NCBI GenBank assembly: GCA_032162605.1
Contig: JAVROT010000088.1
Span: 1,144-65,143, forward strand
Length of the DNA: 64,000 nucleotides
Direction: 5' to 3'
DNA from: Mycobacterium sp.
GTDB taxonomy: Bacteria; Actinomycetota; Actinomycetes; Mycobacteriales; Mycobacteriaceae
This document shows positions 9,069 to 31,978 of the stretch, piece by piece (positions within the stretch are counted from its first letter, which is position 1; every line of letters starts with the position of its first letter). The notes under the pieces are model-generated. The model ran no database searches, was not told the origin of the DNA, and saw nothing but the letters and a program-made list of their open reading frames with translations. A program made the position numbers and the translations under genes.

Positions 9069-9269
9069 CACCGGACGACTAGAGCCGAGAGCCCGTGCAT
9101 CAGTGTGCGCCTGCGGACAGCCCGCGAGCCACAATCCGAGTGTCGTCGACGAGCCCTCCGGCGAGATGATCGCCGCCGCCGCCGCTTCCGGGCCCACGAG
9201 GCCGAGGCTGGCCTTCGCCTCTTCAGCGAGGCCGTCTTCGAAATCGCAGCCGGCCGCCGACCCCTTCGG

Positions 9270-9364
9270 CTTACCCCGCGGATAGGAAAACCTTTCCCAT
9301 CGACAACTGGAATCTGACTCCCCAGCGATTACGGAACAACTGCTCGATCACAACAATTCTCCTC
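9270..9364 (+). promoter_or_regulatory. conserved ~95-nt leader element, copy A (upstream of the MFS operon)
   Basis: About 80% identical by hand alignment to 18777..18870. Contains the imperfect palindrome GATAGGAAA-ACC-TTTCCCATC (9281..9301) and a CGATCAC box. Ends at an ATG in the same register as copy B. Confidence 0.7.
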
Positions 9365-9400
9365 ATGCCCAAACACACGAGGGAAGCCCAGGCCCGATGA
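9365..9400 (+). CDS. 11-codon upstream ORF (MPKHTREAQAR) overlapping the MFS start in ATGA
   Basis: Its ATG is positionally homologous to the ligase start codon of copy B. Its stop TGA (9398..9400) overlaps the MFS ATG (9397). No SD sequence upstream. Confidence 0.25.
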   Translation: MPKHTREAQAR

Positions 9401-10656
9401 AGAAGCTCATGGCACTGCACCGCAATGTCCGGGTCAGGATCGGGTTGGCGTTCGTCCACAAGTTGATCGACGCGATGATCCTCACCTTCATCGCGATCTA
9501 CCTCGCGGCCAGCGTGGGGATCGCGACCACGGGCGCGTTGATCCTGGTGTTCGCCGTGTTCGCGGTCTTCGGCATGCTGCTCGGCGGTCATCTGTCGGAG
9601 CATTGGGGCCGTCGGCCCGTCCTCATCGTCGGGGACGTCATCGGCACCGCCTTCCTGGTGCTGATGTCCGTGGCCTACTTCGCCGACTGGGGCCCGCTCG
9701 CCGTTTACTTCAGCTACGCCATCGTCAAGTTCGGTACCAACCTCGCGCTCCCCGCCAACGACTCGACCATCATCGATGTCACCCCGCCCGAGGACCGCAA
9801 GTACGTCTATACGGTCAACTACTGGGTGATCAACCTCGCGCTCGGCGGCGGCGCACTGCTCGGCGGCTTCCTCTACGGCTCGCACTTCGGCGCGGTGATC
9901 CTGGGCGGCGCGATCGGCATGGGCTTCGCACTCCTCGTCACCGTGCTGCTGGTCGCTGAGACGAAGCCGGAGGCGACCCCGGCCGCCGCACCCGCCAAGC
10001 TCCGCGGGTGGTCCCAGTTCACCGAGGGATACCGAGTGGTGCTGCACGACTCGACATTCCGCCGGTTGATCATCGTCGCCACCCTGGTGCTGACCCTCGA
10101 AGGGCAGCTGAGCACCTCCATCGGGATCCGGCTGTCGAACGACTTCGGAGTCCAGCACGTGTTCCCCTTCGGCCACGTGGACGGCGTGCAGATGCTCGGC
10201 GTGCTCAAGGCGGTGAACACCGTCCTGGTCGTGCTGCTCGCGCTCCAGATCAACACGCTGCTGCGGCGGCTGCCCGACCGGGTCCGGCTCTATACGGGCA
10301 TCCCCCTGTACGCAGGCGGCTTCGCCGTGCTGGCGATCACCGACACCGCCTGGGTGCTGCTGCTCGCCGCCGTGGTCCTGACCATCGGTGAGCTGATGAA
10401 CACGCCAGTCCAACAGGGGCTGCTAGCGGAGCTCGCGCCGGAGCAGGGCCGCCCCCGGTACATGGCTGCGTACTACCTGCACATCCGGTTTGGTCAGGTC
10501 GTCAACTCGTTGCTGATCAGCCTCAGCGCGGTGCTGAGCACCAAGGGGATGGCCGGGATCTACCTGATCTTCGGCGCCGTGATCCTCGTGCAATACCGGG
10601 CGATCCTGGCCCGCCGCCCGGCGCGTGCCGCCGCCCATGCACCGCTGTCCGTCTGA
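9397..10656 (+). CDS. MFS transporter
   Basis: 419 aa with ~12 predicted hydrophobic helices and an MFS-type loop (GHLSEHWGRRPVL). Confidence 0.85.
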   Translation: MKKLMALHRNVRVRIGLAFVHKLIDAMILTFIAIYLAASVGIATTGALILVFAVFAVFGMLLGGHLSEHWGRRPVLIVGDVIGTAFLVLMSVAYFADWGPLAVYFSYAIVKFGTNLALPANDSTIIDVTPPEDRKYVYTVNYWVINLALGGGALLGGFLYGSHFGAVILGGAIGMGFALLVTVLLVAETKPEATPAAAPAKLRGWSQFTEGYRVVLHDSTFRRLIIVATLVLTLEGQLSTSIGIRLSNDFGVQHVFPFGHVDGVQMLGVLKAVNTVLVVLLALQINTLLRRLPDRVRLYTGIPLYAGGFAVLAITDTAWVLLLAAVVLTIGELMNTPVQQGLLAELAPEQGRPRYMAAYYLHIRFGQVVNSLLISLSAVLSTKGMAGIYLIFGAVILVQYRAILARRPARAAAHAPLSV

Positions 10657-10679
10657 CTTTCCACATCTTGGAGGCAATC

Positions 10680-12023
10680 ATGTCGGCACGTTCGAACCAC
10701 GTCACCGAGGCCTACCTGGCCGAATGCGCGACTCCCAGCAGCCGGCTGCGCCACGCGCTGGCCGAGCTCGATGTGTCGGAGACCATGCGTGCGGCATGGC
10801 CGCGGCTGCTGCCCCGCCCGGTCATGGTCGACGAGGCCGAGTTCCGTGCGTTCGGCCGGGATCTCGTCACCATCTTCGACCTGGTCAGCTCACTCCCGCA
10901 GCGTTGCTTCGACGGGGACTTCGAACGGTTCCGCGCGGCCCTTGGCATCGACGACCGGCGCGGCGCCTGGATGCGCCGGCTGCTCGGCGACGGCCCGCCG
11001 CCGCTATACGGCCGGGCCGATATCTATTACGACGGCTCGTCATTCAAGCTGCTCGAGTTCAACATCGGCAGCGCGCTCGGCGGCCTGGACATGGTCGGCC
11101 CGCTGCCGAAGGCCTACCTGCGGATCCCAGCCGTCGCGGAGTTCGCCGCCGAGCACGGCCTTGGCTACCTGGACACGAGCCGGGACCTGGCCGCGGCGCT
11201 GCGCAACGCAGGTGAAGCCATCGATGCCGGCGAGCCCGTGGTCGCGGTGGTGGAGGGACCCGGCGGGATGGGCGTGTACGGACACCAGCGACGGGCGATC
11301 GCGGAGCTGCTGATCGAGCAGGGCATCGAGTGCCGGGTTGGCGAGATCGGCGACCTGACCTTCAGCGCCGGCAAACCGTACCTTCACGGCACCGGGATCG
11401 ACGTGATAGTGCGCTATTACGGGCTCGAGGAGATGCTCGCGCATCCCGACGGCGAGGCTCTCATGGAGCCGGTCTTCCGGGCCCACGAGAACGGCACCGT
11501 AGTGGTGTGGACGCCGACCAACGTGTTCGGGAACAAGGGCACGCTCGCGATGCTGTCCGAGTTCGCCGAGGACACCTCGGTGTTCTCGGCGCAGGAGCGG
11601 ACGGTCATCGAGCGGGTGCTGCCGTGGAGCCGCATGCTCGGCCGACGCGGCGCGGAATTGGATGAACGGTTCGTCTCCGAGTGCATGCAGCGCCGGGAGC
11701 AGCTGGTGTTCAAGCCAACTGGGCTGTTCGGCGGCGAAGGCGTCTTGATCGGACGGGAGGTGGACCCGCGCACCTGGCGGGAGGCGCTGGCGGCGAGCAC
11801 GCAGACCGGCTGCCTCGTACAGGAGATCGTGCAGCCGAACGTGGAGCCGGTGATCGAACCGCAGACCGGTGCCCGCTCCGAGTGGTACGCGCTGTGGGCC
11901 GCCTTCATGACTCCGGCGGGGCTCGCCGGCGGTGGCGTGCGGGCGGTACCGCCCGGTGGCAGCACCGTCATCACGATGATCAACAACACCCAGGTCCGCA
12001 ACACATGCCTCGTGACCTGCTGA
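10680..12023 (+). CDS. ATP-grasp-fold amide ligase, glutathionylspermidine-synthase-like (putative)
   Basis: GGAGG lies 5 nt upstream of the ATG at 10680. Motifs GRADIYYDGSSFKLLEFNIGSALGG and LVFKPTGLFGGEGVLIG resemble the GspS / circularly permuted ATP-grasp families. Confidence 0.65.
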   Translation: MSARSNHVTEAYLAECATPSSRLRHALAELDVSETMRAAWPRLLPRPVMVDEAEFRAFGRDLVTIFDLVSSLPQRCFDGDFERFRAALGIDDRRGAWMRRLLGDGPPPLYGRADIYYDGSSFKLLEFNIGSALGGLDMVGPLPKAYLRIPAVAEFAAEHGLGYLDTSRDLAAALRNAGEAIDAGEPVVAVVEGPGGMGVYGHQRRAIAELLIEQGIECRVGEIGDLTFSAGKPYLHGTGIDVIVRYYGLEEMLAHPDGEALMEPVFRAHENGTVVVWTPTNVFGNKGTLAMLSEFAEDTSVFSAQERTVIERVLPWSRMLGRRGAELDERFVSECMQRREQLVFKPTGLFGGEGVLIGREVDPRTWREALAASTQTGCLVQEIVQPNVEPVIEPQTGARSEWYALWAAFMTPAGLAGGGVRAVPPGGSTVITMINNTQVRNTCLVTC

Positions 12024-12040
12024 GCAAGAGGAGTAGCCCG

Positions 12041-12715
12041 ATGACCCGATTCGTCGACCTGACCCACGGCTTCTACGACGGAATGCCGTCCTACCCCGCC
12101 GACTGGTTTCCGAAGTTCGCCAGCGAGCGCACGATGACCCCGGAGACCGACCCTTACGGCACCAAGCGCACGTTCTCCTATCTGCACGTGTTTCCGCACA
12201 ACGGAACGCACATGGAGTACCGGCTGCATTTCTTCCCCGGGGCGGAGGGGATTGACGAGGTGCCGCTGCACACCCTGATCGGCCGCGCCTGCGTCGCCGA
12301 CCTGTCCGACAAGGGCGAGCTGGAACCGGTCACCGGCGAGGACCTTGAGCGGACGCTGCGCCCGGTGTGGCGGGAGGGTGACCGGCTGCTGGTTCGCACC
12401 GACTACCTGCGGAACAACTGGGGCCGCCCCGACTACTGGGACGTGCCGCCCTACCTGACGCCGTCAGCCGCGGAATGGGCCATCGACAACGGCGCCAGCC
12501 TGTTCGGTCTGGACTGCCTCACCGAGCGGCCCGGCGACGCCGAGTCTCCCGTGCACCACGCGCTGCTGGCGGCCGGCATCCCGCTGCTGGAGTACGTCAC
12601 CAACATGCACGAGCTCACCAGGTCGGTCGTTCAGCTCGTTGCGCTGCCCATGAAGGTGGCCGGCGCCGAGGCGGCTCCCACCAGGGTCATCGCCATGGAG
12701 GACACCGATGACTGA
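12041..12715 (+). CDS. cyclase-family protein (kynurenine formamidase-like metal hydrolase)
   Basis: HNGTHMEYRLH motif (compare HxGTHxDxPxH), plus GLDCLTERPGD and VHHALLAAGIPLLEY. Confidence 0.8.
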   Translation: MTRFVDLTHGFYDGMPSYPADWFPKFASERTMTPETDPYGTKRTFSYLHVFPHNGTHMEYRLHFFPGAEGIDEVPLHTLIGRACVADLSDKGELEPVTGEDLERTLRPVWREGDRLLVRTDYLRNNWGRPDYWDVPPYLTPSAAEWAIDNGASLFGLDCLTERPGDAESPVHHALLAAGIPLLEYVTNMHELTRSVVQLVALPMKVAGAEAAPTRVIAMEDTDD

Positions 12716-13889
12716 ATCGGGCCGGCCCGCGGTTGCGCTCGCTTCCGCGACCGATGACGCCGCGGTGCCCGGTGTGTTGCACCGGCTGCTCGCGCTGCTC
12801 GACGAGCCGCTGGCCGGCCTGCGTCCCGGCGCCGAGGTGCTCATCAAGCCGAACATGTTCCAGACCGCCCCTGGATTTCACGTGAGCCCGGCGCTGCTGG
12901 CCGCCATTGCTCGCGCGGTCGCCGAGCACGGGGCCCGGCCGGTGATAGCGGAGCGTACGCATGCCATCTACGAGATCTTGAATGACCACGAGGCCGCCAA
13001 GTACGCTCGCGTGGTCAGCTTCGATGACCTGCCGTTGCGCATCACCAACATTCCGGGCGCGACGTCGCTTCGGGTGCCGATCGCGGTGCCCGAGATGATC
13101 GAAGACTGCGACTACTTCATCGGGGTGCCGCAGCTGCGCACGCACGCGAGCGTCGTCTACTCCAACGCGATGAAGAACCTGGTCGGGTTGTTGCCCGGCT
13201 ACACGACCCGAATCGTGCACATGGCTGGGGTCGACGAGTCCACCGTGGACCTCAACCTGATGCGCCCGCAGGATCTGGTCATCTGCGACGGAACCACGGT
13301 GATCGAGGGCAACTACCCGATGGACGGGCAAGCGCGCTCGGTGGGCTTCCTGGCGGCCAGCCGAAACGCGGTCGCCCTCGACGTCGCGGTCGGCGTGCTG
13401 GCCGGCTTCGACCCGCGCAGCGTCGCCTATCTGCGCGACGCGCACCAGCGCGGGATGGGCCCACTCGCGCTCGAGGACATCGACCTGCGTGGCACGGCGC
13501 TGACGGAGCTCGCCTTCGACATGGTCAAGGCGCCGGTCGAGATCGTTCCGCCGCGTGCCGGTATCCACGTCTACGCCGAGCATGCCTGCCCGGCGTGCAG
13601 TCGGTTCGTGGCCGCGGCCATGCGTGCCCTCGCCGATGAGCTGTGCGCTTGGGACGGAGAGATGACGATCGTCTCCGGTCCGCAGGTGCAGATGCCGCCG
13701 CTGCGCGGTGCGGTGATCCTCGTCGGCAACTGCCTCTACGAGAGCCGCGATCTCGGCATCTTCATCGAGGGTTGCCCACCACGCGCGATCCAGCTCGCCG
13801 CGTTCCGGTACGCGATGGGCAAACCGGTCGGCGACCATGAGCGCACCCAGTTCCGGGTGCCGCCACGGCTGGCGGGTGTGGCGGGATGA
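12708..13889 (+). CDS. DUF362-family protein with LarA-like motif spacing (candidate NPN-dependent enzyme)
   Basis: VLIKPN..., VPQLRTHASVVYSNAMKNLVGLLPGYTTRIVHMAG and ICDGTTVIEGN. The C-terminal third has CPAC...C...NC...GCPP. 8-nt and 4-nt overlaps with the flanking genes. Confidence 0.75.
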   Translation: MTESGRPAVALASATDDAAVPGVLHRLLALLDEPLAGLRPGAEVLIKPNMFQTAPGFHVSPALLAAIARAVAEHGARPVIAERTHAIYEILNDHEAAKYARVVSFDDLPLRITNIPGATSLRVPIAVPEMIEDCDYFIGVPQLRTHASVVYSNAMKNLVGLLPGYTTRIVHMAGVDESTVDLNLMRPQDLVICDGTTVIEGNYPMDGQARSVGFLAASRNAVALDVAVGVLAGFDPRSVAYLRDAHQRGMGPLALEDIDLRGTALTELAFDMVKAPVEIVPPRAGIHVYAEHACPACSRFVAAAMRALADELCAWDGEMTIVSGPQVQMPPLRGAVILVGNCLYESRDLGIFIEGCPPRAIQLAAFRYAMGKPVGDHERTQFRVPPRLAGVAG

Positions 13890-15259
13890 CGATCAGTACG
13901 GTCACCTCGCCCGGTTCGGCGTTGCCCGCCGGATCGCGGCTGTACCGCCATGTCATGCCGCTGGCGACGCCGATGAACCCGGTGGCGGCGGCCGCCGCGT
14001 TGCGTACCGCCGGTCGGCTCATGCTCACCGCCGGATCCGAGGGTCGCAGCGCAACTCTGGCGGTGGGCGAGCTCGCCGTCCTCTCCCATCCGGGGGGTGC
14101 GGGCCACGCGCCGCTGGCCGACGCCGTGGATTTTCTTGCCGCGCTGGATGTTCCAGTGGGCACCCCGCCTGCCGAGACGGCCTGGTACGGCCTGTTGGGC
14201 TATGACGGGGTGCGGGACTTCGAGCGATTGCCCTGCCGTCACCCGGCGACCGATCGGCCGGTGTACGAGTTCTTCCTGCCCGAGACACTGGTCCAGTTCA
14301 CTGACGGGTATGGGCAGGTGATCGGCCGCGGTCCGTCAGCCGCCGCCGCACGCGCCGCGGCCGAGCGGACCGCGAGGAGGTTGGCGGGGCTGACCGTTGC
14401 GCCGCTCGGCGTCGTCGCCGTGGGTGCCGGCCGGTTCGGCGCCAGCTACGAGGAGTACGCCGCCGCGGTCGACCGCGCAAAGCACCACATCCTCGACGGC
14501 GACGTCTTCCAACTCGTGCTGTCCATCGCCTGGACCGCACCGGCCACCGTGGACGGTCTGGCGGTCTTCGAGCGACTGACGGCGATCAATCCGTCCCCAT
14601 ACCACTTCTGGTACGCCGGGCCGCGGTTCGAGGCGGTCGGCGCCTCACCGGAACCGTGCTTGACGCTGCACGACGGCCGGGCGCTCATCCGTCCGCTCGC
14701 CGGAACCCGACCTCGCGGCCACGACGCCCTCGCCGATCTGCGCGCCGAAGCCGACCTGCGCTCGTCGGCCAAGGAACTGGCCGAGCACCGGATGCTCGTC
14801 GATCTCGCGCGCAACGATCTGGGCCGGGTGTGCCGGCCGGGCAGCGTCTCCGTCGAGCGGCTGATGGACGTGGAGCGCTACTCCCACGTGATGCACCTGA
14901 CCTCGGACGTGCACGGCCAGATCCGCGGCGACCTGCGAACCGACGAACTCATCCGGGCAACGTTCCCGGCGGGCACCATGACCGGCACGCCCAAAGTGCG
15001 CGCCATGGAGCTCATCGACGAACTAGAGCCGACCCGGCGCTGGCTGTACTCAGGCGCGGTCGGGTCATTCGGACTGTCCCACGTCGACTTGTACCTGACG
15101 ATTCGCAGCATGGTGCTGTGCGACGGAGAAATTCGCCTGCAGGCGGGAGGTGGCATCGTGCACGACTCCGAGCCGTCGGCCGAGTACGCCGAATGTCTGG
15201 CGAAGCTCGGCTCGAGTGCCCGGGCCCTTGGGATCACGATCAAGGGGGCCGCGGCATGA
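13886..15259 (+). CDS. chorismate-utilising enzyme, component I (anthranilate/aminodeoxychorismate/ADIC synthase family)
   Basis: FQLVLS, NPSPYHFW, RPLAGTRPRG, AEHRMLVDLARNDLGRVC, FPAGTMTGTPKVRAMELIDELE, GGGIVHDSEP. Confidence 0.85.
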   Translation: MTISTVTSPGSALPAGSRLYRHVMPLATPMNPVAAAAALRTAGRLMLTAGSEGRSATLAVGELAVLSHPGGAGHAPLADAVDFLAALDVPVGTPPAETAWYGLLGYDGVRDFERLPCRHPATDRPVYEFFLPETLVQFTDGYGQVIGRGPSAAAARAAAERTARRLAGLTVAPLGVVAVGAGRFGASYEEYAAAVDRAKHHILDGDVFQLVLSIAWTAPATVDGLAVFERLTAINPSPYHFWYAGPRFEAVGASPEPCLTLHDGRALIRPLAGTRPRGHDALADLRAEADLRSSAKELAEHRMLVDLARNDLGRVCRPGSVSVERLMDVERYSHVMHLTSDVHGQIRGDLRTDELIRATFPAGTMTGTPKVRAMELIDELEPTRRWLYSGAVGSFGLSHVDLYLTIRSMVLCDGEIRLQAGGGIVHDSEPSAEYAECLAKLGSSARALGITIKGAAA

Positions 15260-15858
15260 TCTGCGTCATCGACAACTACGACTCGTTCGTATACAACCTC
15301 GTGCAGTACGCGGGAGATCTCGGCGAGGAGTGTGTCGTATACCGCAACGACGAGGTAACCGTCCAACGGGTGGCCGACCTTGCTCCCGACTTGATCCTCA
15401 TCTCGCCGGGTCCCGGTGATCCGGCCGATGCAGGCATCTCCATCAAGCTGATCCAGCGGCTGGGCCACGACTTCCCGATTTTCGGAGTATGTCTCGGCCA
15501 CCAAGCGATCGGCGCCGCGTTCGGCGCCCGGATCCGGCACGCCGCCGCGCCGATGCACGGTAAGTGCTCGGAGATCAGGCACGACGGAATGGGCGTCTTC
15601 GCGGGACTGCGGAACCCGCTGACGGTTGCGCGCTACCACTCCCTGGTGATCGAGGCCGACACGCTGCCGGCCGAACTGGTGGCGACCGCCTGGTCGCGGG
15701 AAGGCGAGATCATGGGGGTTCGGCACCGGACACTGCCGATCGAGGGTGTGCAGTTCCACCCCGAGTCGCTGTTCACCGAACAGGGCGTCGACATCGTCGG
15801 AAATGCGGTGCGTGGCATCCGCAGCCGGCTGGCCGCGGAGGGGGTGGGGGCCGCATGA
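15256..15858 (+). CDS. glutamine amidotransferase, component II (TrpG/PabA-like)
   Basis: MICVIDNYDSFVYNL, GVCLGHQAIG (catalytic Cys), VQFHPES. ATGA overlap with component I. Confidence 0.9.
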   Translation: MICVIDNYDSFVYNLVQYAGDLGEECVVYRNDEVTVQRVADLAPDLILISPGPGDPADAGISIKLIQRLGHDFPIFGVCLGHQAIGAAFGARIRHAAAPMHGKCSEIRHDGMGVFAGLRNPLTVARYHSLVIEADTLPAELVATAWSREGEIMGVRHRTLPIEGVQFHPESLFTEQGVDIVGNAVRGIRSRLAAEGVGAA

Positions 15859-16691
15859 ACGCCGACCGGCTGCTGGCCCGTCTTCGATCACTCGACGGTG
15901 TGGCCGTCGCGTTTTCCGGTGGTGTCGACTCCACCCTGGTGCTGGCCGCAGCGTTGCGGGCGCTGCCGGCGAACCGGGTGCTGGCGGTGATCGCCGACTC
16001 GCCCAGCCTCGCCCGCACCGAACTCGTCGACGCGCGGCACGTTGCCGCCGATCTGGGCGCGGAGCTGGTCGAAGTGCGGGTCGCCGAGCTCGAGATTCCC
16101 GGCTACCGTGCGAATGCGGGCAACCGCTGCTATTTCTGCAAACACACCGTGCTGAGCGCCGTCAGCGAACTCGCGGTCCGGCGGGGTATCGCGCACGTGG
16201 CCACCGGTACGCATGCCGACGACCATCGGGCCGTGCACCGACCCGGTCTGCGTGCCGCCCGTGAACTGCACGTGGTCGAACCACTGGCCGATGCCGGGCT
16301 CGGCAAGCGCGAGATCCGGATGCTGGCGGCCGCGTGGTCGTTGCCCGTCGCCGACAAGCCGGCGACGCCGTGCCTGGCCTCGCGTATCGCGGTGGGAGTA
16401 CCCGTCTCCATCGGTCGGCTTGGCCTGGTGGAGCGCGCCGAGATCGCGGTGCGAGCGCGGCTGGCCGGTGTCGGCGTGCAACCGCGTGATCTCCGAGTTC
16501 GGTTGCTCGGCGATGGATTTGCCATTGAGCTGGACCGGACGACGCACGCCGCGATGGAGATGTTGCCGGGGTTCACTGCCGAGGTTCTCGCTGCTTTGAA
16601 TGGCCTCGGCCTGACCGGCGCCGGACGGGTGGGGACATACCGCTCTCCCACACTCGCGCCTCCCATCGGTGACACCGCGGTCACTTCGTGA
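15855..16691 (+). CDS. larE: LarE-type PP-loop ATP-dependent sulfur transferase
   Basis: AFSGGVDSTL PP-loop. CYFCK plus PCLASR gives three Cys in total. ATGA overlap with the amidotransferase gene. Confidence 0.85.
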   Translation: MNADRLLARLRSLDGVAVAFSGGVDSTLVLAAALRALPANRVLAVIADSPSLARTELVDARHVAADLGAELVEVRVAELEIPGYRANAGNRCYFCKHTVLSAVSELAVRRGIAHVATGTHADDHRAVHRPGLRAARELHVVEPLADAGLGKREIRMLAAAWSLPVADKPATPCLASRIAVGVPVSIGRLGLVERAEIAVRARLAGVGVQPRDLRVRLLGDGFAIELDRTTHAAMEMLPGFTAEVLAALNGLGLTGAGRVGTYRSPTLAPPIGDTAVTS

Positions 16692-16737
16692 GATCGTCAG
16701 CGAGACACCGGTGCCCCGCACAGCTGAAGGCGGAACC

Positions 16738-17436
16738 ATGACCAGGTCCTCAGAGCCCGATGACCGTTGGAAGCCCGACGAGGCGCTGACCGCCTTCGCC
16801 GACCTCGATGTCGACCGTGCAGCCCGACGCGGTTATCCGGAGGCGGTGTACTGCCGGGGCAAGACGGCCGAGCAGGTCCGGCTCATCGCCGGTGCGCTGC
16901 GCGGCCACCGAGCGCGCACGTTGTTCACCCGGGCGAGCCCGGAGCAGGCCGCAGCGATTCTCGGCGAGCTGCCCGACGCCTTCCACGACGCAGCCAGCGG
17001 GCTGCTGGCGTGGCCGCCCGACCCGCCGGATCCGGTCGGTGGGCAGGTCCTCGTCGTGGCTGCGGGCACGGCCGACCATCCCGTCGCGCGGGAGGCCCTG
17101 CTCACCGCCCGGCACCTGGGCCGCAGCGCCGATCTGATCATGGACGTCGGCGTCGCCGGCCTGCACAGAGTGCTGCGGAGGCTTGACGCGCTCCGTTCGG
17201 CCAGGGTGATCGTCGTGGTGGCGGGTATGGACGGAGCACTGCCCGGGGTGGTCGCCGGACTGGTCGCGGCGCCGGTGGTGGCGGTGCCGACGTCGACCGG
17301 GTACGGCGCGGCGTTCGAGGGCCTGGCGCCACTGTTGACGATGCTCAACAGTTGCGCGCCCGGGGTAGCCGTGGTGAACATCGACAACGGTTACGGCGCA
17401 GGCCACCTTGCCGCTCAGATAGCTGCACCATCCTGA
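16738..17436 (+). CDS. larB: LarB-type nickel-pincer cofactor biosynthesis protein (AIR-carboxylase-like NaAD carboxylase/hydrolase)
   Basis: VVAAGTADHPVAREA, VAGLHR, VVAGMDGALPGVVAGL, VVAVPTSTGYG and NIDNGYGAG. The GTG at 16669 is an alternative start. Confidence 0.85.
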   Translation: MTRSSEPDDRWKPDEALTAFADLDVDRAARRGYPEAVYCRGKTAEQVRLIAGALRGHRARTLFTRASPEQAAAILGELPDAFHDAASGLLAWPPDPPDPVGGQVLVVAAGTADHPVAREALLTARHLGRSADLIMDVGVAGLHRVLRRLDALRSARVIVVVAGMDGALPGVVAGLVAAPVVAVPTSTGYGAAFEGLAPLLTMLNSCAPGVAVVNIDNGYGAGHLAAQIAAPS

Positions 17437-18668
17437 TCGCGAGGCTCGCCCGACCATGGCGCGCCGGGACGGAGCATCGCGGCGTCGGCGGCCGCGATCG
17501 CCTCGTCGAGCACCTGCCGCACCGGTAAGTCGCGGGCCCGGGCCACGGCCGCGGCGTCGTCGAACTCCGGGGTTGCGTGCACGATGCGTCCGGCCCGCAC
17601 CGCCACCTTGATCCGCACCTCGCCGCCGCGCAGCGCGACGGCCCGCCAGCCTCGGTCCAGGGCCACGCGGGACACCGGATACTCCCGTACGCCGATCGTC
17701 GAAGTCAACGCAAAGACGTTGTCGCGCAGTTCTGCCCGCTCGGCGTCCCGGGCGAGCACGCATAGCGTGTGCGCTGGCCGACCCTTCTTCATCACGATCG
17801 GCACCAGCCACGCGTCGGCGGCTCCCGACTCGAGCAGTGCGGCCAGCACCGTCGGCCATACCCGCGGATCCAGGTCGTCGACGTTTGTCTCCAGTACCCA
17901 CATGCCGTCGGCCGTCGGCACATCGGCGATGGGAATGCCGAGGGCCACGCGGACCACGTTGGCCCGCCCCGGGACGTCACGCCCACCCGCGCCCACTCCC
18001 ACCGCGGTGATCTCCATCGGTCCAATCGACCCGCACTCGTTTGCCAGTGCACGGATCAGAGCCATGCCGGTAGGCGTGGCGAGCTCGCCCTCGCCACCCG
18101 CGAGGACACGCCAGCCTCTGGCGAGCTCGAGAACCGCGGGTGGTGGCACCGGCAGATCGCCGTGGGCTGAGCCGACCCGCCCGGAGCCCACCGCTACCGG
18201 GCTGGCCGTCACCCGTGTGACAGCGAGCTCGGCCAGCGCGGCGCACACGCCGACGATGTCGGCAATCGAGTCCCACGAACCCACCTCGTGGAAATGCACG
18301 TCATCGGGTGCGACTCCGTGCACCCGCCCCTCCGCGTCGGCAAGCCGTGCGAACGCCGCGAGCGCGGTGGTGCGCACCGCGCTGGGCAGCTCAGCGTCTT
18401 CGAGCATCGAACGGATGCGTGCCCACGAGCGGTGCGGATGATCCTCGGCACGACTCTCGACGTCAATCTTCAACGCGCGCAGGCCGGCTCGGTGCACTGT
18501 GCTCGTTCGTAGTGCGACCTCGCCGGGCACGACGGCGGACACTGCGGATTCGACCCGGTCGAGCGGGGCGCCGGCGTCGATCAATGCGCCCATCAACATG
18601 TCACCCGCGATGCCCGCGGTGGCGTCCACCCACAGGTGCAAGCCCGCACTGTGCCCCATGACCGCCAC
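17415..18668 (-). CDS. larC: LarC-type nickel insertion (cyclometallase) protein
   Basis: GIAGDMLMGALIDAG, FHEVGSWDSIADIVG and PTGMALI. The C-terminal domain carries KKGRPAHTL. It converges on larB with a 22-nt overlap. The ATG at 18659 is an alternative start. Confidence 0.85.
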   Translation of the reverse strand: MAVMGHSAGLHLWVDATAGIAGDMLMGALIDAGAPLDRVESAVSAVVPGEVALRTSTVHRAGLRALKIDVESRAEDHPHRSWARIRSMLEDAELPSAVRTTALAAFARLADAEGRVHGVAPDDVHFHEVGSWDSIADIVGVCAALAELAVTRVTASPVAVGSGRVGSAHGDLPVPPPAVLELARGWRVLAGGEGELATPTGMALIRALANECGSIGPMEITAVGVGAGGRDVPGRANVVRVALGIPIADVPTADGMWVLETNVDDLDPRVWPTVLAALLESGAADAWLVPIVMKKGRPAHTLCVLARDAERAELRDNVFALTSTIGVREYPVSRVALDRGWRAVALRGGEVRIKVAVRAGRIVHATPEFDDAAAVARARDLPVRQVLDEAIAAADAAMLRPGAPWSGEPRDQDGAAI

Positions 18669-18776
18669 GCTATGCCGTCGACCCGGCCGCGGTGATGACA
18701 GTCGCTAATTCGGTTGTGCCGCAGGATGTTCAGTGCCGAACCTGAGGCAGCCGCAGCACATCGAACGAGCCCGGTG

Positions 18777-18870
18777 CTTACCCCACGGATAGGAAAACCT
18801 TCCCATCGACACGTGGAATCTGGCTTCCCGGCGATTACGCGAGCACGTCGCGATCACCACCATTTCAGTC
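18777..18870 (+). promoter_or_regulatory. conserved ~95-nt leader element, copy B (upstream of the ligase operon; within the divergent larC intergenic region)
   Basis: Aligns with 9270..9364. Palindrome GATAGGAAAACCTTCCCATC at 18788..18807. Same CGATCAC box. Ends at the ligase ATG (18871). Confidence 0.7.
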
Positions 18871-20544
18871 ATGACCCCGTACACACACAAGACGGTCCTG
18901 ACCCCGGAACTGAGGGCCAAGGTGGCCGCGGACTCCGGCATCGGCGGCGGCAACCTGCTGCACTCGATGCTCGCCATCAACCCGTATCCGGATGAGCCGT
19001 TCATCCACTCGCTGACTCCGGTGCCCTACACCGACGGTGAGACGCGGACCGAGTTCAGCCTCCGCGACCTCGACCACCTGGTCCAGAGCTGGTCGGTGTG
19101 GTACCAGGCGCAAGGCGTGCGGCCGAAAGACCGGGTCGCGATCTTTCTGCCCGACTCCATCGCATATTTCGTGCACTACTCGGCCATCGCCCAGCTCGGC
19201 GCCATCGCCGTGCTCATCAACTGGAAGGCGCCGCGGGAGAGTGCGATCGCGTTGTGCGAGCGGACCGGCGCGATCGGCCTGTACACCGATCTGGAGCGAT
19301 TGGACCGGATCGGGCCCGATCTGGACAAGCTGGCGCTGCGGTGGATCAGGACCATCGAAGAGATGCCGAGTCCGGCTTCGGCGACGCTGAGCGACGAGGC
19401 ACGGTTTAGGCATCATCCCGAGGACCCGGTGGGAATGATGCACTCGTCGGGCACGACGGGCCTGCCCAAGCCGGTCATCCACACCCACCGCACGATTCTG
19501 GAGGGTCCCAAGTTCCGTGCCGTCGACTACAAGGAGGAACCCGACGCACTGATCATGACCGCGCTTCCGCAGTCGCATCAGGGCACCATCTCGTTCACCT
19601 CCTACGCGGTCCTGACCGGACAGCCGTTGCTGGCCTGGCGGGATGTCACCGGCGAGGAGCTGGCGGCGGCCATCCCGGAGCACCAGCCGACGATGGTGAT
19701 GGCCTTCGGCCATGCCTACCCCGAGCTCGCCGCGCTGGAGACTCCTACCGGCGCCCTCGACTCAGTGAACATCTGGGTCTCCATGGGGGATGCCGTGCAC
19801 GAGCGGCACCTGAAGAACGTCCTCGCGCGCCGCTCTGCAGACCTCCCACCAGCTGCCTTCCTCGACCGCCTTGGCACCACCGAGCTGGGATGGGGCGTCT
19901 TGATGCATCCACGCACCCTGGCGACCCAGCGCAACGACCGCTGCGTCGGCCGCTCGGTCGGCTTCGCAGAGGTCGCCATCCTTCGGCCGAACGGCACTCT
20001 CGCCGCACCGTACGAGTGCGGGTTCCTCGGGGCGAAACCACCGTCCATGACCGTGGGGTACTGGGGCAACCAGGAGACCTATTACCGGAGCATCCTCGCC
20101 GGTTACTGGCTGACCGGCGACGTCGCCTTTCGCGACGACGACGGCTACTTCTACCAGGTCGACCGCGCGGTCGACGTGGTGCACACCGCGCAGGGGCCCG
20201 GCTACTCGGTGCAGATGGAGGAGCTGGTCCTCAACGAGGTCGTCGGCGTCGAGGACTGCACGGTCGTCGCCGGCGGATATCGAAACGAGACGGTGGCCGT
20301 CGCCGTGGTGACTGGAGCGGACATCGACCCGGAAAAGGTGCTGTCAGCGGCCAATGATGCGTTGCGCGCGACCGGGAAGCCGGAATTGGCCATGGTCGAG
20401 GTCGCGAACGCCGACGGCGACTTCCCACTCGGCGTCACTGGTAAGTCGCTCAAGCGCTACCTGCGCGAGAAGTACGAGGACCTCGTCGTCTACCTCGGCG
20501 ATCACCAAAGCAAAAACCTCGCCACGAGCCCTGCGCTCGCCTAA
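18871..20544 (+). CDS. ANL-superfamily AMP-forming ligase (CreM-like diazotase candidate or acyl/aryl-CoA ligase)
   Basis: MHSSGTTGLPKPVIHTHRT (A3), GTTELG (A5), GDVAFRDDDGYFYQVDR (A8), GVTGKSLKR (A10 Lys). Confidence 0.85.
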   Translation: MTPYTHKTVLTPELRAKVAADSGIGGGNLLHSMLAINPYPDEPFIHSLTPVPYTDGETRTEFSLRDLDHLVQSWSVWYQAQGVRPKDRVAIFLPDSIAYFVHYSAIAQLGAIAVLINWKAPRESAIALCERTGAIGLYTDLERLDRIGPDLDKLALRWIRTIEEMPSPASATLSDEARFRHHPEDPVGMMHSSGTTGLPKPVIHTHRTILEGPKFRAVDYKEEPDALIMTALPQSHQGTISFTSYAVLTGQPLLAWRDVTGEELAAAIPEHQPTMVMAFGHAYPELAALETPTGALDSVNIWVSMGDAVHERHLKNVLARRSADLPPAAFLDRLGTTELGWGVLMHPRTLATQRNDRCVGRSVGFAEVAILRPNGTLAAPYECGFLGAKPPSMTVGYWGNQETYYRSILAGYWLTGDVAFRDDDGYFYQVDRAVDVVHTAQGPGYSVQMEELVLNEVVGVEDCTVVAGGYRNETVAVAVVTGADIDPEKVLSAANDALRATGKPELAMVEVANADGDFPLGVTGKSLKRYLREKYEDLVVYLGDHQSKNLATSPALA

Positions 20545-20561
20545 TTCGATTGGGAACCGCC

Positions 20562-21596
20562 ATGACTACATCAGACATTCTGCTCGTCTTCGACAAGACC
20601 GTTACCCCCGCCGGCGTCGAGGGATGGATGCGGCACCTGGAATCTGCCAACGCACCCACCGATGTGTACCGGCTCGGCACCACTCACGTCCTGTCGGTAT
20701 CCGATGTGGACCTCATCCACCGGGGGGGGCCGGTGCTTCCCGAGCCCACCCACCAGGTGCTGTGGAACACCGACGTCTGGTTGGGGCGCAGGGAACTGCG
20801 CCCCGGCGGGACAGTGGTTTCCTTCGGCACGACCACGATCGGCGACGGTTCCGTCGCGGTCATCGCCGGACCGTGCGCGGTCGAATCTCCCGAGCAAACG
20901 CACGCCACCGCGGCCTTCGTCGCCGAACACGGCGCCGTCGGCCTGCGGGGTGGCGTCTTCAAACCGCGGACCTCGCCGCATTCCTTCCAGGGCCTGCAGT
21001 GGGACGGCCTTGACCTGCTTGCCGAAGCCGGGGAGCGGACCGGCCTACCCGTCGTCACCGAGGTGGTCGACCCGGAGCACGTCAAGCGGCTGGCCGCGGT
21101 GGTCGACGGGTTCCAGATCGGGGCCAGAAACATGCAGAACTTCGCGCTGCTGACCGCGGTGGGTCAGAGCGGCCTGCCGGTCGTGCTCAAGCGCGGCTTC
21201 GGCTGCACCATGGAGGAAACACTCGCCGCGGCCGAGTATCTGCTGGTCGAGGGCAACGACCAGGTGGTGCTGTGCGAGCGGGGGATCCGCACGTTCGAAC
21301 CGTCGGCGCGCTTCACGCTGGACCTCACCGCGGTCGCGCTGTGGAAACAGCGCACCCACCTGCCGGTGATGGTGGATCCCAGCCATTCCGGTGGCCTGCC
21401 CGAACTCGTGGAACCGCTGTCGCTGGCCGCGGTCGCGGCCGGCGCGGACGCGCTACTGATCGACGTCCACGTTGCGCCGGAGAAGGCGTTGTGCGACGGC
21501 AACCAGGCACTTCGCCCACAACAGTTCGCCGACTTGATGACCCGGCTCGCCCCGATGGTGGCCGGACTCGGCCGCCACATGAGCAGCGGCGGGTAG
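20562..21596 (+). CDS. 3-deoxy-7-phosphoheptulonate (DAHP) synthase, type I-beta, with an N-terminal ferredoxin-like domain
   Basis: VIAGPCAVES, GGVFKPRTSPHSFQG, IGARNMQNF, KRG and VDPSH. About 75 extra N-terminal residues precede the barrel, as in regulated Thermotoga-type enzymes. Confidence 0.85.
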   Translation: MTTSDILLVFDKTVTPAGVEGWMRHLESANAPTDVYRLGTTHVLSVSDVDLIHRGGPVLPEPTHQVLWNTDVWLGRRELRPGGTVVSFGTTTIGDGSVAVIAGPCAVESPEQTHATAAFVAEHGAVGLRGGVFKPRTSPHSFQGLQWDGLDLLAEAGERTGLPVVTEVVDPEHVKRLAAVVDGFQIGARNMQNFALLTAVGQSGLPVVLKRGFGCTMEETLAAAEYLLVEGNDQVVLCERGIRTFEPSARFTLDLTAVALWKQRTHLPVMVDPSHSGGLPELVEPLSLAAVAAGADALLIDVHVAPEKALCDGNQALRPQQFADLMTRLAPMVAGLGRHMSSGG

Positions 21597-21608
21597 GGCA
21601 GTGACCCC

Positions 21609-23594
21609 ATGTCCACTGAGAAGCTACAGCTGGCAATCGTCGGATTCGGCCCACGCGGCTTGTCGGTCGCGGAACGCCTCTGCGCCAACGTCGAGTCGCT
21701 CCTGCCGGACGGTCGGGAACTCGTCATCCACCTCGTCGACCCGTACGTGTTCGAGGGCGGCCAGGTATGGCGAAGCACGCAGGACCAGGCGCTGTTGATG
21801 AACACGGTGGCCTGCCAGGTAACCATGTTCGTCGACGACACCGTCGACTGTGCCGGGCCGGTGGTGAGCGGGCCGAGCCTCTACGAGTGGGCCCGCTCGA
21901 TCGCCCTGATCGGCATCCCGAACGTACCGGAGGCGGTTCGCGCCGAAGCCGCCACGCTCGGGCCGGACGATTATCCGTCTCGGGCGTTCTACGGGAGTTA
22001 CCTGCAGTGGACGCGCGACCGGATCATCTGGTCGGCGCCCCCGGCGGTCAGCTTCATCTCGCACCAGGCGACCGCCGCCGACGTTCGGGATACCGCGCCT
22101 GGTTTGCAGGAAGTCGTACTGGACTCCGGGGAGACCATCGGCAATCTGGACGCCGTGGTGCTCGCGCTCGGTCACATGCCGCATCGTCTCGGCAAGTCCG
22201 AGGCGGCCCTCGGCCAGTTCGCCGACCTGCACGGCCTGCGGTATGTCGCACCGAGCAACCCGGCCGACGTGCCACTGGACGCGATCGGAGCGGGTGAGTT
22301 GGTGATCTTGCGCGGCATGGGCCTCAACTTCTTCGACTACATGGCGCTGTTGACCATCGGTCGTGGTGGCACGTTCACGCGCGAACTCGGCGGCACCCTG
22401 AGCTACCTGCCGTCGGGTCGGGAACCGCGCCTGGTTGCGGGATCACGGCGTGGAGTGCCCTACCAGGCTCGCGGCAAGAATCAGAAGGGGCCGTCCGGCA
22501 GGCACGAGCCGCGGTACCTGACCGCCGAGGTGATCGAGCGGCTGCGAGCCCGCGCCGACGCCGGGGTACCCGCAGGCTTCCGGCGGGACATCTGGCCGAT
22601 GATCGACCAGGAAGTCCGCACGGTGTACTACGCGACGCTGGTGCGGGAGCGTCGCTGCACCTGCGACGCCGAGGAGTTCACCGCCCTGTTCGCCGCGGCG
22701 GAGCGCGCGCTGGTGCCGACCCTCGGAGATCCTCTGGCCATCCAGGAGAGCGACGCCCAGCGCACCGTGCTCAGCAAGTTCGACATCTATCCCGACGAAA
22801 GCTGGGACTGGCGCAAGATCGCGGCGCCGTTCGTCGACGACGATCTCCGCTCGACCCAGAGCTTCCGCAGCTGGCTGCGGTCCTATCTGGACAGTGAAGT
22901 CCGGGAGGCCGGGAAGGGGAACGTGGCCGGTCCGCGCAAGGCCGCCCTGGATGTGCTGCGGGACCTGCGCAACGAGATCCGGTTGCTGGTCGACCACGGT
23001 GGCCTTTCCGGCGACTCCTACCGGGACGAACTGCAGCGTTGGTACATGCCGTTGAACGCCCACCTCTCCATCGGGCCACCGGCCGAACGCATCGAGCAGT
23101 TCGCCGCGCTGGTGGATGCCGGCGTGCTCGAGGTCCTCGGCCCGGACCTGCGCGTCGACTGCTCGGACGGACACTTCGTCGCGTACTCCCGAACCTGTCC
23201 CGACCTCACGGTGCGGGCTACCACGCTGATCGAGGCGCGCCTGCCGGAAGTCGACCTGCACCGGACGACAGATCCCCTGCTGCGGACGCTGCTGGACCGG
23301 GGCGAGTGCCAGCCGTACCGCATGCCGATCCGCGGCGGCGGTCAGTACGTGGCAGGTGGTGTCGCGGTCACCCGGCGGCCGTACCGGCTGCTCGACGCTG
23401 CAGATCGCCCGCACGCGCGGCGTTTCATGTTCGGCGTGCCCACCGAGTCGGTGCACTGGGTGACCGCGGCGGGCATCCGTCCCGGCGTCAACTCCGTGAT
23501 CCTCGGTGATGCGGACGCCATCGCCCGGTCCTGCCTGCGACCGCTGCTGCTCGCCGATGATCGCGGCGACCACCGGACCGAGACATCGGCGTGA
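21609..23594 (+). CDS. FAD/NAD(P)-binding protein (CreE/FzmM-like flavin N-oxygenase candidate)
   Basis: 661 aa. N-terminal LAIVGFGPRGLSVAERL dinucleotide-binding motif and a second GxG (ILRGMGLNFFD). The size and layout match the FAD-NAD(P)-binding family found next to fumarase-fold lyases. Confidence 0.7.
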   Translation: MSTEKLQLAIVGFGPRGLSVAERLCANVESLLPDGRELVIHLVDPYVFEGGQVWRSTQDQALLMNTVACQVTMFVDDTVDCAGPVVSGPSLYEWARSIALIGIPNVPEAVRAEAATLGPDDYPSRAFYGSYLQWTRDRIIWSAPPAVSFISHQATAADVRDTAPGLQEVVLDSGETIGNLDAVVLALGHMPHRLGKSEAALGQFADLHGLRYVAPSNPADVPLDAIGAGELVILRGMGLNFFDYMALLTIGRGGTFTRELGGTLSYLPSGREPRLVAGSRRGVPYQARGKNQKGPSGRHEPRYLTAEVIERLRARADAGVPAGFRRDIWPMIDQEVRTVYYATLVRERRCTCDAEEFTALFAAAERALVPTLGDPLAIQESDAQRTVLSKFDIYPDESWDWRKIAAPFVDDDLRSTQSFRSWLRSYLDSEVREAGKGNVAGPRKAALDVLRDLRNEIRLLVDHGGLSGDSYRDELQRWYMPLNAHLSIGPPAERIEQFAALVDAGVLEVLGPDLRVDCSDGHFVAYSRTCPDLTVRATTLIEARLPEVDLHRTTDPLLRTLLDRGECQPYRMPIRGGGQYVAGGVAVTRRPYRLLDAADRPHARRFMFGVPTESVHWVTAAGIRPGVNSVILGDADAIARSCLRPLLLADDRGDHRTETSA

Positions 23595-23667
23595 CCGCCC
23601 GAAGGCGACCGCGAGTGAGGATCGCAGCGAGGGACGAGCGAGGACCGGAGCGAGTGGGAGCGGAGGC

Positions 23668-31247: not shown

Positions 31248-31354
31248 GGAAACCTCGTTCCAGGTCACCTAGATCGTAGGAGCCAGGGCCGCCCGGCATC
31301 GGGGAAATCGTCGTGATCAGGCGTGGTCCGCTAACTACCCAATAGGCTATCCAC

Positions 31355-31978
31355 ATGCCGTCCCACCTGGAAATCTGGAAACCGTCAGGACGGGAGCTGA
31401 TCACTCTGAGCGGCCAACGGGTGACCATTGGCAAGGCCGCGACCAACCTCGTGTCGCTCAAACACGATTCGACCGTCTCACGCTTGCATGCCGTCTTGGA
31501 CAACCTCGGGTTCGCTTGGTCGGTACGGGATGTGGGCAGCCGCAATGGCACCTATCTCAACGGCGAGAAGATCTCTGCCGAACGGGTCATGCGTTCCGGG
31601 GACGAGTTGCGAGTCGGCAAGTCACGGTTGGTCTTCTGGGAGGTGAAGGAAGGCGACGAAGCCACAGCGGACGCGACGATGTCTGCCGCCCCCACCCAGC
31701 TCCCGCCCCGCCTGACCCGGCGCGAACTCGAGGTCCTGATGGTGTTGTGTCGCCCGCTGGTTTCCGAGGACCCATTTCCCGAGGCGATATCCGTTCGTCA
31801 GATGGCTCAGGAGCTGTTCGTCACCGAGGCAGCCATCAAGCAGCACCTGCAAAACCTGTACGACAAATTCGCGATCCCCACCGAGGGAGAGCGCCGGGTC
31901 CGTCTCGCCAATGAAGCCATCCGGCGTGGGGCTATCACCATCGCCATGCTGCGCGATACCGGTACTCCCGAAGAGTGA
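31355..31978 (+). CDS. FHA-domain / LuxR-type HTH transcriptional regulator
   Basis: The N-terminus has VTIGKA...VSRLHAVL...DVGSRNGTYLNG (FHA). The C-terminus has LTRRELEVL...ELFVTEAAIKQHLQNLYDKF (LuxR/FixJ HTH). Confidence 0.85.
   Translation: MPSHLEIWKPSGRELITLSGQRVTIGKAATNLVSLKHDSTVSRLHAVLDNLGFAWSVRDVGSRNGTYLNGEKISAERVMRSGDELRVGKSRLVFWEVKEGDEATADATMSAAPTQLPPRLTRRELEVLMVLCRPLVSEDPFPEAISVRQMAQELFVTEAAIKQHLQNLYDKFAIPTEGERRVRLANEAIRRGAITIAMLRDTGTPEE

Follow-up and report, generated by a model that had tools for sequence, protein, structure and literature searches.

A recurrent 100-bp cassette ahead of mycobacterial biosynthetic operons as a candidate promoter linked to an FHA-LuxR regulator and a Ser/Thr kinase

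The window analysed here, a stretch of 64,000 nucleotides (nt) from Mycobacterium sp. (contig JAVROT010000088.1), carries two full copies, A and B, of an element of about 100 base pairs (bp), each running into an ATG and standing ahead of one operon of what appears, from the encoded proteins, to be a natural-product cluster (9397-29314) with a nitrite-from-aspartate pathway and nickel-pincer cofactor genes (LarB/LarC/LarE-like). We found that the element belongs to a family of repeats that recurs before unrelated genes and is linked to genes for an FHA-LuxR regulator and a serine/threonine (Ser/Thr) kinase. The genes of operon A, which begins at 9397, specify an MFS transporter, a glutathionylspermidine-synthase-like protein, a cyclase and a DUF362 protein, followed by a TrpE/PabB-like chorismate enzyme and LarE-like and LarB-like proteins; larC is oriented convergently to this operon. 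Operon B begins at 18871 with the gene of an AvaA6-like diazotase and continues with those of a DAHP synthase, a CreE-like flavoprotein and a nitrosuccinate-lyase-like protein (534 bits versus a 650-bit cut-off), then a class IV aminotransferase, an Rv2466c-like protein and two ATP-grasp enzymes of the L-amino-acid-ligase type. Beyond operon B come the genes for the kinase and for the FHA-LuxR protein, and then a tRNA gene. The full copies, their parts and a partial third copy are located as follows.

9266..9367, + strand: element copy A, full cassette ahead of the MFS-led operon, sharp at its 5' edge and ending with the in-register ATG (nhmmer 94 bits, E 6e-27).
9269..9292, + strand: distal repeat unit U1 of copy A (GCTTACCCCGCGGATAGGAAAACC), at about -96 to -73 from the ATG, recognised by the U1 versus U3 repeat score; its CTTACC and GGATAGGAAA are near-invariant in 27 unbiased copies.
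9317..9338, + strand: proximal repeat unit U3 of copy A (ACTCCCCAGCGATTACGGAACA), with the near-invariant GCGATTACG at 9325-9333; it spans -48 to -27 and overlaps the -35 position.
9352..9357, + strand: -10-like hexamer AACAAT of copy A, 7 nt before the ATG and with CGATCAC just 5' of it; the family consensus is GACnAT.
18773..18873, + strand: element copy B, full cassette, ATG 18871 included (nhmmer 100.7 bits, E 5e-29).
18776..18799, + strand: distal repeat unit U1 of copy B (GCTTACCCCACGGATAGGAAAACC).
18823..18844, + strand: proximal repeat unit U3 of copy B (GCTTCCCGGCGATTACGCGAGC), with GCGATTACG at 18831-18839, in the -35 region.
18858..18863, + strand: -10-like hexamer CACCAT of copy B, 7 nt before ATG 18871 and with CGATCAC just 5' of it.
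31297..31330, - strand: partial third copy, limited to the putative core promoter (CGGACCACGCCTGATCACGACGATTTCCCCGATG) and situated in the 87 nt that separate the kinase gene from the FHA-LuxR gene (nhmmer weak, E 0.32).

The original prediction, made from the letters of the window, had described two look-alike leaders with the same ATG register, about 80% identical overall and differing at about seven positions in their first 64 nt. This description was accurate: in a global alignment of 9270-9367 with 18777-18873, 82 of 100 columns are identical (82%), with 57/64 identities (89%) and a single 1-nt indel in the first 64 nt and 25/36 in the last 34 nt, and the ATGs lie at 9365 and 18871. The 64-nt core of the two copies matched with E = 4e-13 in blastn within the window, and a 26-nt core pattern gave no match in 100 shuffles. 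The CGATCAC seen ahead of both ATGs is found at 9345-9351 and at 18851-18857, and copy B does lie in the promoter region of the divergent larC, 108 nt from the larC start (18668). As to the extent of the element, the core had been placed correctly and the ends had not, as the similarity begins about 4 nt earlier (G-n-T-G before CTTACC) and ends about 12 nt beyond the ATG. No further full copy was found in the 64 kb by blastn-short or nhmmer, and a 13-nt match at 51962-51974, inside a coding region, was dismissed as chance. The claim that no other intergenic region of the window contains the element thus stands for full copies and fails for the partial core copy at 31330-31297 on the minus strand. 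This partial copy comprises 34 nt, the 3' third of the element, without the upstream repeat units, and matches the 15-nt pattern TGATCACGACnATTT exactly (14/14 specified bases); the orthologous spacers between kinase and FHA-LuxR genes in the related loci L210/L211 (retrieved loci carry L numbers) keep TCACGACCATTT and do not keep the ATG. Neither sigma-70 consensus promoters nor intrinsic terminators were found near A or B.

Each leader had been said to run into the first ATG of its operon. This is the case for copy B, as ATG 18871 is the start codon of the 557-amino-acid (aa) AMP-binding enzyme, the AvaA6-like diazotase, that opens operon B. It is not the case for copy A, whose ATG opens a short open reading frame (ORF).

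9365..9400, + strand: predicted leaderless 11-codon ORF (MPKHTREAQAR, then stop), whose TGA overlaps the MFS ATG (9397) as ATGA.

In relatives (L006 20450-20611, L190, L194, L119, L152) a conserved small ORF of 50-61 aa (..AIWxSAEALARADWMHELIK..) lies between the element and the MFS gene. By this comparison, the 11-codon ORF of the window is a truncated remnant of that small ORF that has retained the coupling to the MFS gene.

Is the element a peculiarity of this window? A query with the diazotase against species-representative genomes returned 77 loci, and nhmmer with the A/B alignment found 14 copies, namely those of the window and 12 more in six mycobacterial versions of the cluster (L001, L002, L004, L005, L006 and L009, from Mycobacterium, Mycolicibacterium or closely related metagenome-assembled genomes (MAGs)), with two to three copies per locus. 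In these loci a copy stands before each transcription unit, and behind the copies lie genes for the diazotase, the MFS transporter, an FMN reductase and, between larB and larC, a TauD-like protein. Conservation elsewhere, for which a blastn or nhmmer search had been suggested as a check, was thereby found upstream of both the diazotase gene and the MFS gene in other mycobacterial versions of the cluster. A degenerate 22-mer retrieved 120 metagenome contigs, in which nhmmer confirmed about 65 full or near-full copies (E 1e-13 to 1e-32). Altogether the family as found here comprises 27 unique copies from genomic loci and about 65 from metagenomes, in mycobacterial lineages wherever the source is named, ahead of at least 12 kinds of genes. 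In the metagenome contigs these include genes for an extracytoplasmic function (ECF) sigma factor, PhyH and TauD dioxygenases, an Ldh_2 dehydrogenase and carrier-protein-like products, as well as small secreted Cys-containing proteins, a His-rich small ORF and many short ORFs. A description of the element was not found in Rfam or in the literature searched.

We read the anatomy of the cassette from 59 unique copies and cross-checked it on 27 copies that had not been pre-selected by the search pattern, counting positions from the A of the ATG; the 27 unbiased copies showed the same invariants as the full set. From 5' to 3', the cassette is made up of a G-n-T-G-CTTaCC block (-99/-90), a CGGAtAGGAAAcC block (-86/-74), a TTCCC block (-71/-67) followed by 8 variable nt, a GtGGAATCTGGCTTCcC-n-GCGATTACGgAAcCaC block (-58/-25), a GATCA block (-20/-16) and a GACnATT block (-13/-7), after which 5-6 nt lead to the ATG. 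The first codons, ATG-ACn-ACG, are conserved together with the promoter-like part and the start codon, and some copies form in-frame N-terminal fusions. The 5' edge is sharp, about 99 nt before the ATG, with a mean pairwise identity of 0.25-0.30 up to 5 nt before CTTACC, unlike the 3' edge, which varies among copies. Indels occur at alignment columns 26 and 93 only, and columns 40-92 were free of them in the 14 genomic copies first aligned. Within the cassette, U1 (GCTTACCCGGCGGATAGGAAACC, -97/-74) and U3 (GCTT-CCCAGCGATTACGGAACC, -49/-26) form 23-nt direct repeats 48 nt apart with the consensus GCTTaCCC-n-GCG..TA.GGAAaC; their alignment score was reached by 9 of 5000 shuffles. A weaker third unit sits between them (offsets 22, 26 and 48), and U3 covers the -35 position.

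An imperfect palindrome had been noted in copy A, GATAGGAAA-ACC-TTTCCCATC, and is present there at 9281-9301; it had been proposed, at about 20 bp, as the binding site of the FHA-LuxR protein. Across the family this proposal was not supported. The best inverted repeat (ATAGGAAA/TTTCCCTT, centred at -74) is retained as GGAA/TTCC only, with a spacer that varies by 1 nt. A 20-bp palindrome as conserved operator was rejected, given the loss of everything beyond GGAA/TTCC in diverged copies and the 1-nt indel inside it; the layout that is conserved is the pair of 23-nt direct repeats.

Just upstream of the start codon, at -13/-8, lies the -10-like hexamer, whose second base is A and whose sixth is T in 59 of 59 copies; it is 6-7 nt away from the start codon in 51 of 51. 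Its first base is G, C or A, not the T of TANNNT, and a canonical TANNNT was found in the 22 nt before the ATG in a single one of 51 copies; the core promoter would therefore be weak or read by another sigma factor. An ATG or GTG stands in register in 49/51 copies and is preceded by C at -1 in 45/51. Shine-Dalgarno (SD)-like 4-mers between -18 and -4 were found in 4 of 51 copies and in neither A nor B. Because of this absence the transcript is probably leaderless, with transcription probably starting at the A of the conserved ATG. In the copies of L203, L204, L205 and L208 (L204 and L205 are identical in sequence), which stand ahead of a secreted-protein/kinase operon, conservation ends after CATT(T/C) and gives way to about 30 nt of unrelated leader that contains GAGAAGGAAA and the ATG. 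There the conserved part thus ends at the -10. At the kinase promoters of the window and of L210/L211, the core block alone is kept.

This arrangement resembles that of mycobacterial leaderless mRNAs in that the start codon lies at the presumed 5' end and an SD is absent. In M. tuberculosis one gene in four is leaderless, -10 elements lie 7-12 bp upstream of start sites with no -35 consensus, and the preferred bases are C at -1 and T at +2 (Cortes 2013, PMC3898074); the cassette likewise has the C at -1 and the T at +2. Leaderless translation requires nothing more, and nothing less, than an ATG or GTG at the 5' end, and small ORFs of this leaderless kind are frequently linked to the following gene via RTGA (Shell 2015, PMC4633059), much as the TGA of the 11-codon ORF behind copy A overlaps the next ATG. 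The cassette differs from these mRNAs in that its -10 is not TANNNT and in that promoter, start codon and first codons are reused as a unit before unrelated genes.

The original prediction had left open whether the two operons are linked by a shared operator/promoter or by a leader RNA. The conserved stretch of about 95 nt at a fixed distance from the start codon and a small GGAA-loop-TTCC hairpin that is possible in both window copies would fit a riboswitch or attenuator transcribed from a promoter further upstream. We observed no such structure. RNAalifold on 52 full copies gave -1.4 kcal/mol for the plus strand, with a 3-bp helix only and a covariance term near 0, and -1.3 for the reverse strand, which was equally empty, so that the covariation check proposed for a leader RNA returned neither consensus structure nor covariation on either strand. 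Single-sequence folds of the plus strand were no better than those of shuffles (z 0.03 to -1.36). Rfam gave no match at gathering score over the whole window and none at E <= 1 around A and B, in line with the earlier remark that no match to a familiar riboswitch class was seen. Moreover, the sequence upstream of the element is unrelated among copies and offers no common promoter, so any shared promoter lies inside the element, and the copies with their own SD leader lose conservation exactly at the -10. We therefore ruled out the riboswitch or leader-RNA reading on the missing structure, covariation and Rfam matches, and regard a structured leader as highly improbable; of the two earlier options, the link through a promoter or operator is the one supported.

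Which protein could read the element? Two divergent genes of the window are the candidates for regulator and signal input.

31355..31978, + strand: candidate cognate regulator of 207 aa with an N-terminal FHA and a C-terminal LuxR/GerE-type helix-turn-helix domain, proposed on domain matches and on its co-location with copies of the element.
29280-31268, - strand: Ser/Thr kinase gene with likely start ATG 31247 and a GAGG SD, divergent from the FHA-LuxR gene; presumed signal input.

In a search of PDB sequences the FHA domain was nearest to GarA, OdhI and EmbR, and the C-terminal matches, to ChrA, GerE and VpsT, were weak. The region LTRRELEVL...VTEAAIKQHLQNLYDKF, the presumed recognition helix, is invariant in 20 homologues, and the family is large, with more than 3,700 homologues at E <= 1e-20. 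By tblastn, FHA-LuxR homologues adjoin copies of the element in five contigs that had been found through the element (L004, L091, L172, L191 and L193); in the last four the regulator gene is divergent and 80-210 nt away. As an independent test, we retrieved loci by the FHA-LuxR protein alone, which gave eight distinct loci, some from MAGs and others from Mycobacterium sp. EPa45 and M. antarcticum. Of these eight, seven carry one to three full copies within 10 kb (E 1e-9 to 1e-28); in four of the seven a copy and the regulator gene are immediate divergent neighbours, and a copy ahead of the kinase operon is present in most. The eighth (L210/L211) has the layout of the window itself, with the full copies more than 10 kb from the regulator gene. 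In all eight, a Ser/Thr kinase gene adjoins the FHA-LuxR gene. The targets in the protein-fetched loci comprise the DAHP-synthase operon of a related nitrite-pathway cluster, ATP-grasp, TauD, Ldh_2 and MFS operons, and the gene of a small secreted Cys protein, behind which comes that of a Kelch-repeat kinase. The FHA-LuxR protein had been named as a candidate binder of the palindrome in the leader, and with this co-location it is the best candidate.

Secreted proteins of about 100-180 aa that have a signal peptide and contain Cys recur among the targets and were also seen in L094, L121 and L149. In the FHA-LuxR loci they are encoded just upstream of the Kelch-repeat kinase gene (L203 13909-14238, L204 14059-14391, L208 14023-14355, L206 14795-15103) and could be signals for the kinase.

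Taken together, we lean somewhat towards reading the cassette as a DNA-level promoter of about 100 bp that depends on a kinase-gated FHA-LuxR activator and joins the operons of the cluster into one regulon. The near-absence of TANNNT (1/51) together with U3 on the -35 is the layout expected for an activator-dependent promoter, and since the core promoter is poor, an activator is most likely needed. Likewise, since the kinase promoter keeps the core without the upstream units, these units look like an add-on that confers regulation.

Several points weigh against this reading. The C-terminal LuxR assignment of the window protein is weak (GerE 21.9 bits versus a 23.5-bit cut-off), and the AlphaFold model of the protein has a predicted local distance difference test (pLDDT) score of 40 and is unusable. 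The clean palindrome of 16-20 bp that is usual for LuxR-type dimers is not conserved, and U1 and U3 would lie on opposite faces of the helix, because their 48-bp offset corresponds to about 4.5 helical turns. The metagenome copies had been pre-selected by a pattern over columns 43-63, which inflates the conservation there. A dedicated alternative sigma factor could read a promoter whose hexamer lacks the first T of TANNNT, and co-location is an association without direction, so that the regulator could be a repressor or itself a target gene.

The last two points lead to the two other ways of reading the same promoter. If it were read by a dedicated alternative sigma factor of ECF or another type, GCGATTAC/GGAAC would be the -35 and GACnATT the -10, and the FHA-LuxR protein and kinase would be regulon members or accessories. 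Start sites without TANNNT may indeed belong to alternative sigma factors (PMC3898074), and such a factor would account for the single TANNNT among 51 copies, for the GGAAT/GGAAC-like motifs, for the core block (-33 to +3) found alone before the kinase gene and for the element ahead of an ECF sigma gene in one lineage (L150). The orthologues of the L150 sigma factor in three long contigs, however, have ordinary SD-type upstream regions that lack the element, which makes that gene an occasional target and not an autoregulated cognate sigma factor. In neither the window nor the loci is the element accompanied by a sigma gene, and tblastn with the L150 sigma factor found a shared N-terminal module only, and no homologue of the sigma factor itself in the window or the cluster loci. 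ECF promoters have a GGAAC-type -35 and a CGT-type -10, 16-17 nt apart. The element does not fit this geometry: GGAAC and CGAC are 13 nt apart, and GGAAT-N18-CGG lacks GTT or CGT. A SigF-type promoter on the reverse strand (GTTT..GGGTA) was rejected on a reading of the sequence for its 11-nt spacer, which is too short, in agreement with the earlier remark that ECF- and SigF-type spacings do not fit. Finally, the roughly 60 bp conserved upstream of the -35 exceed what a sigma factor reads. We consider this alternative unlikely. ECF sigma genes of the L150 type (L198, L201 around 10001-10573) usually adjoin small conserved ORFs (38, 97 and 91 aa) and carrier-protein/AMP-ligase clusters.

The same promoter could also be held down, with FHA-LuxR as repressor, the repeats as operators and kinase signalling lifting the repression. 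Co-location gives no sign of control, the conservation extends through the spacer and the -10 (GATCAC, GACnATT), where repressor sites are frequent, and divergent regulators often autorepress. Against this, a poor core that lacks both TANNNT and a TTGACA-like -35 would be expected to need help and not restraint, the chief conserved blocks lie upstream of and over the -35, in the usual geometry of activators, and the kinase promoter has the core without the upstream units. We judge repression to be quite unlikely.

Activation by FHA-LuxR would have counterparts in known systems. In EmbR-PknH of M. tuberculosis and AfsK-AfsR of Streptomyces, a Ser/Thr kinase acts with a substrate or FHA-bearing transcription factor that controls a set of operons, and here too a kinase and a candidate FHA-bearing regulator are encoded by neighbouring genes. 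EmbR and AfsR, however, have winged-helix domains of the Streptomyces antibiotic regulatory protein (SARP)/OmpR type plus BTA domains, whereas the present protein has a LuxR/GerE-like DNA-binding domain and only 207 aa; SARP systems use heptamer repeats, as opposed to a 100-bp cassette with 23-bp repeats. A SARP target promoter was rejected, as the repeats are 23 nt long with offsets of 22, 26 and 48 and not heptamers at 11-bp phase 8 bp from the -10, and no SARP gene was seen in the cluster. Class II activation with several boxes is familiar from the LuxR/NarL/GerE family, as in the DosR boxes at the hspX promoter and the lux box at -42.5. The cassette shares with these the repeated upstream units, of which the proximal overlaps the -35 of what would be a weak promoter, and the recurrence of this design before every operon of the proposed regulon. 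It differs in that LuxR/NarL/GerE boxes are palindromes of 18-20 bp, whereas here direct repeats lie 48 bp apart and the sole inverted repeat has a variable spacer, and in that those regulators carry a receiver or autoinducer domain in place of the FHA gating predicted here. The points of difference from known systems are the combination of FHA with a LuxR-type helix-turn-helix, the direct 23-bp units, the non-canonical -10 and the candidate portable unit of promoter, start codon and first codons. On this cluster in mycobacteria, on FHA-LuxR regulators and on mycobacterial mobile promoters, we found nothing specific in the literature.

How did the copies come to stand where they do? The same cluster occurs in Pseudonocardia, Geodermatophilus, Amycolatopsis and two MAGs (L003, L007), with proteins up to 90% identical and no copy of the element. 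In these element-less versions the cluster is a single operon, the MFS gene comes straight after the second ligase gene and another sequence precedes the diazotase gene; the FHA-LuxR gene and a close kinase homologue are likewise absent nearby, with a weak kinase match of 99 aa in L003. Element and regulator gene are thus absent together, in keeping with the favoured reading. L006 retains the ancestral gene order and has the element plus the small ORF inserted between the ligase gene and the MFS gene. A different upstream sequence (..GTGGCCG.CGCAGGCC.CACCAGAAAGTGATGACATG..) lies about 60 nt before the diazotase gene in L003, L007, L008, L010, L012 and L017, is conserved across genera and may be a regulatory leader of the element-less versions' own. 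Diazotase orthologues of Pseudonocardia, Geodermatophilus and Mycobacterium are about 90% identical, which suggests horizontal transfer. Just past the cluster (29000-39000 of the window) the G+C content drops from about 0.68-0.70 to 0.62-0.64, and the tRNA gene (32245-32317) lies 270 nt beyond the FHA-LuxR gene; drop and tRNA may mark a cluster boundary or an integration site.

A family with many copies per lineage in unrelated contexts could also be a selfish interspersed repeat of MITE-like or MIRU-like kind with no regulatory role. One copy (L005 2382-2487) would suit this, as it is aimed at the 3' end of the convergent larC and has only a 31-codon GTG ORF behind it; it could be an orphan or an antisense promoter. 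Terminal inverted repeats and tandem arrays are both absent, however, the plasmid and phage collections gave no matches, the 5' edge is sharp and the 3' edge variable, and the linkage to one regulator family is tight. All 28 placed genomic copies lie just upstream of, and are oriented into, an ORF, which in two of them (L005 2382, L213 16494) is not an annotated gene. A purely selfish repeat is accordingly a very remote prospect in our view. A known parallel is that of putative mobile promoters, which Matus-Garcia, Nijveen and van Passel reportedly described in 2012, with promoter propagation by duplication. The likeness lies in near-identical upstream regions before non-homologous genes, within and between genomes; the differences are that here the copies are bound to one regulator family and one clade, that the translation start is carried along and that recognisable mobile-element ends are absent.

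Some further observations concern the surroundings of the copies. Directly behind many copies (L001 7032-7898, L002 7232, L005 931, L150 and metagenome copies) lies the coding sequence of a module of some 60 aa (MTTNTEQRQAIWYVTGLAEVLA..DDAIVQFDRYRRT..). The module forms in-frame fusions with a TauD-like enzyme and with the ECF sigma factor (L150; proteins P0121-P0124 of 258-291 aa) and also stands alone as ORFs of 23-57 codons, and a 606-aa protein of L103 has a weaker, similar N-terminal motif. In L103 (2278-2691) and L106 (1121-1774), two divergent copies stand back to back, about 200 and 480 nt apart, respectively; those of L103 precede a PhyH dioxygenase gene and the gene of the 606-aa protein. 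In M. antarcticum (L204/L205 3049-4308), the copy ahead of the DAHP synthase gene has a transposase gene of insertion-sequence type (rve) about 100 nt upstream of it.

In summary, we found a family of cassettes with conserved direct repeats, a conserved -10-like hexamer and an in-register start codon, and the mechanism that we favour would run as follows. Bound to the repeat units, of which the proximal one covers the -35, the FHA-LuxR protein would recruit RNA polymerase, and the adjacent Ser/Thr kinase would gate the regulator through the phosphothreonine-binding FHA domain. Transcription from the A of the conserved ATG would yield a leaderless mRNA for which an SD is not needed. Copy B would then drive the diazotase/nitrite-pathway operon directly, and copy A would reach the MFS gene via the leaderless 11-codon ORF and termination-reinitiation at ATGA. 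With copies before each transcription unit, the split mycobacterial cluster would form one regulon, and as both halves of the cluster carry a copy, they would be switched together.

We speculate further, and with considerable doubt, that the cassette is the cis-element of an undescribed circuit of soil mycobacteria in which a receptor kinase, with Kelch repeats in most loci, signals to the FHA-LuxR activator and thereby to every copy. This would perhaps be an autoinducing, quorum-sensing-like switch of nitrite-dependent (diazo-type) natural-product clusters, and new operons would be recruited to the circuit by pasting in the cassette; an autoinducing loop is possible because the cassette also precedes small secreted Cys proteins ahead of the kinase gene.

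If activation by FHA-LuxR is correct, one cis-element, one regulator and one kinase would offer a handle for awakening a silent mycobacterial cluster with genes for nitrite generation from aspartate, for an AvaA6-like diazotase, for two amino-acid ligases and for the nickel-pincer cofactor. The large and uncharacterised FHA-LuxR family would gain a candidate DNA target, and the hidden Markov model of the element can be used to define the regulon in complete genomes. What is one operon in other genera would in mycobacteria have been split into separately promoted units by the insertion of a ready-made promoter with a leaderless start.

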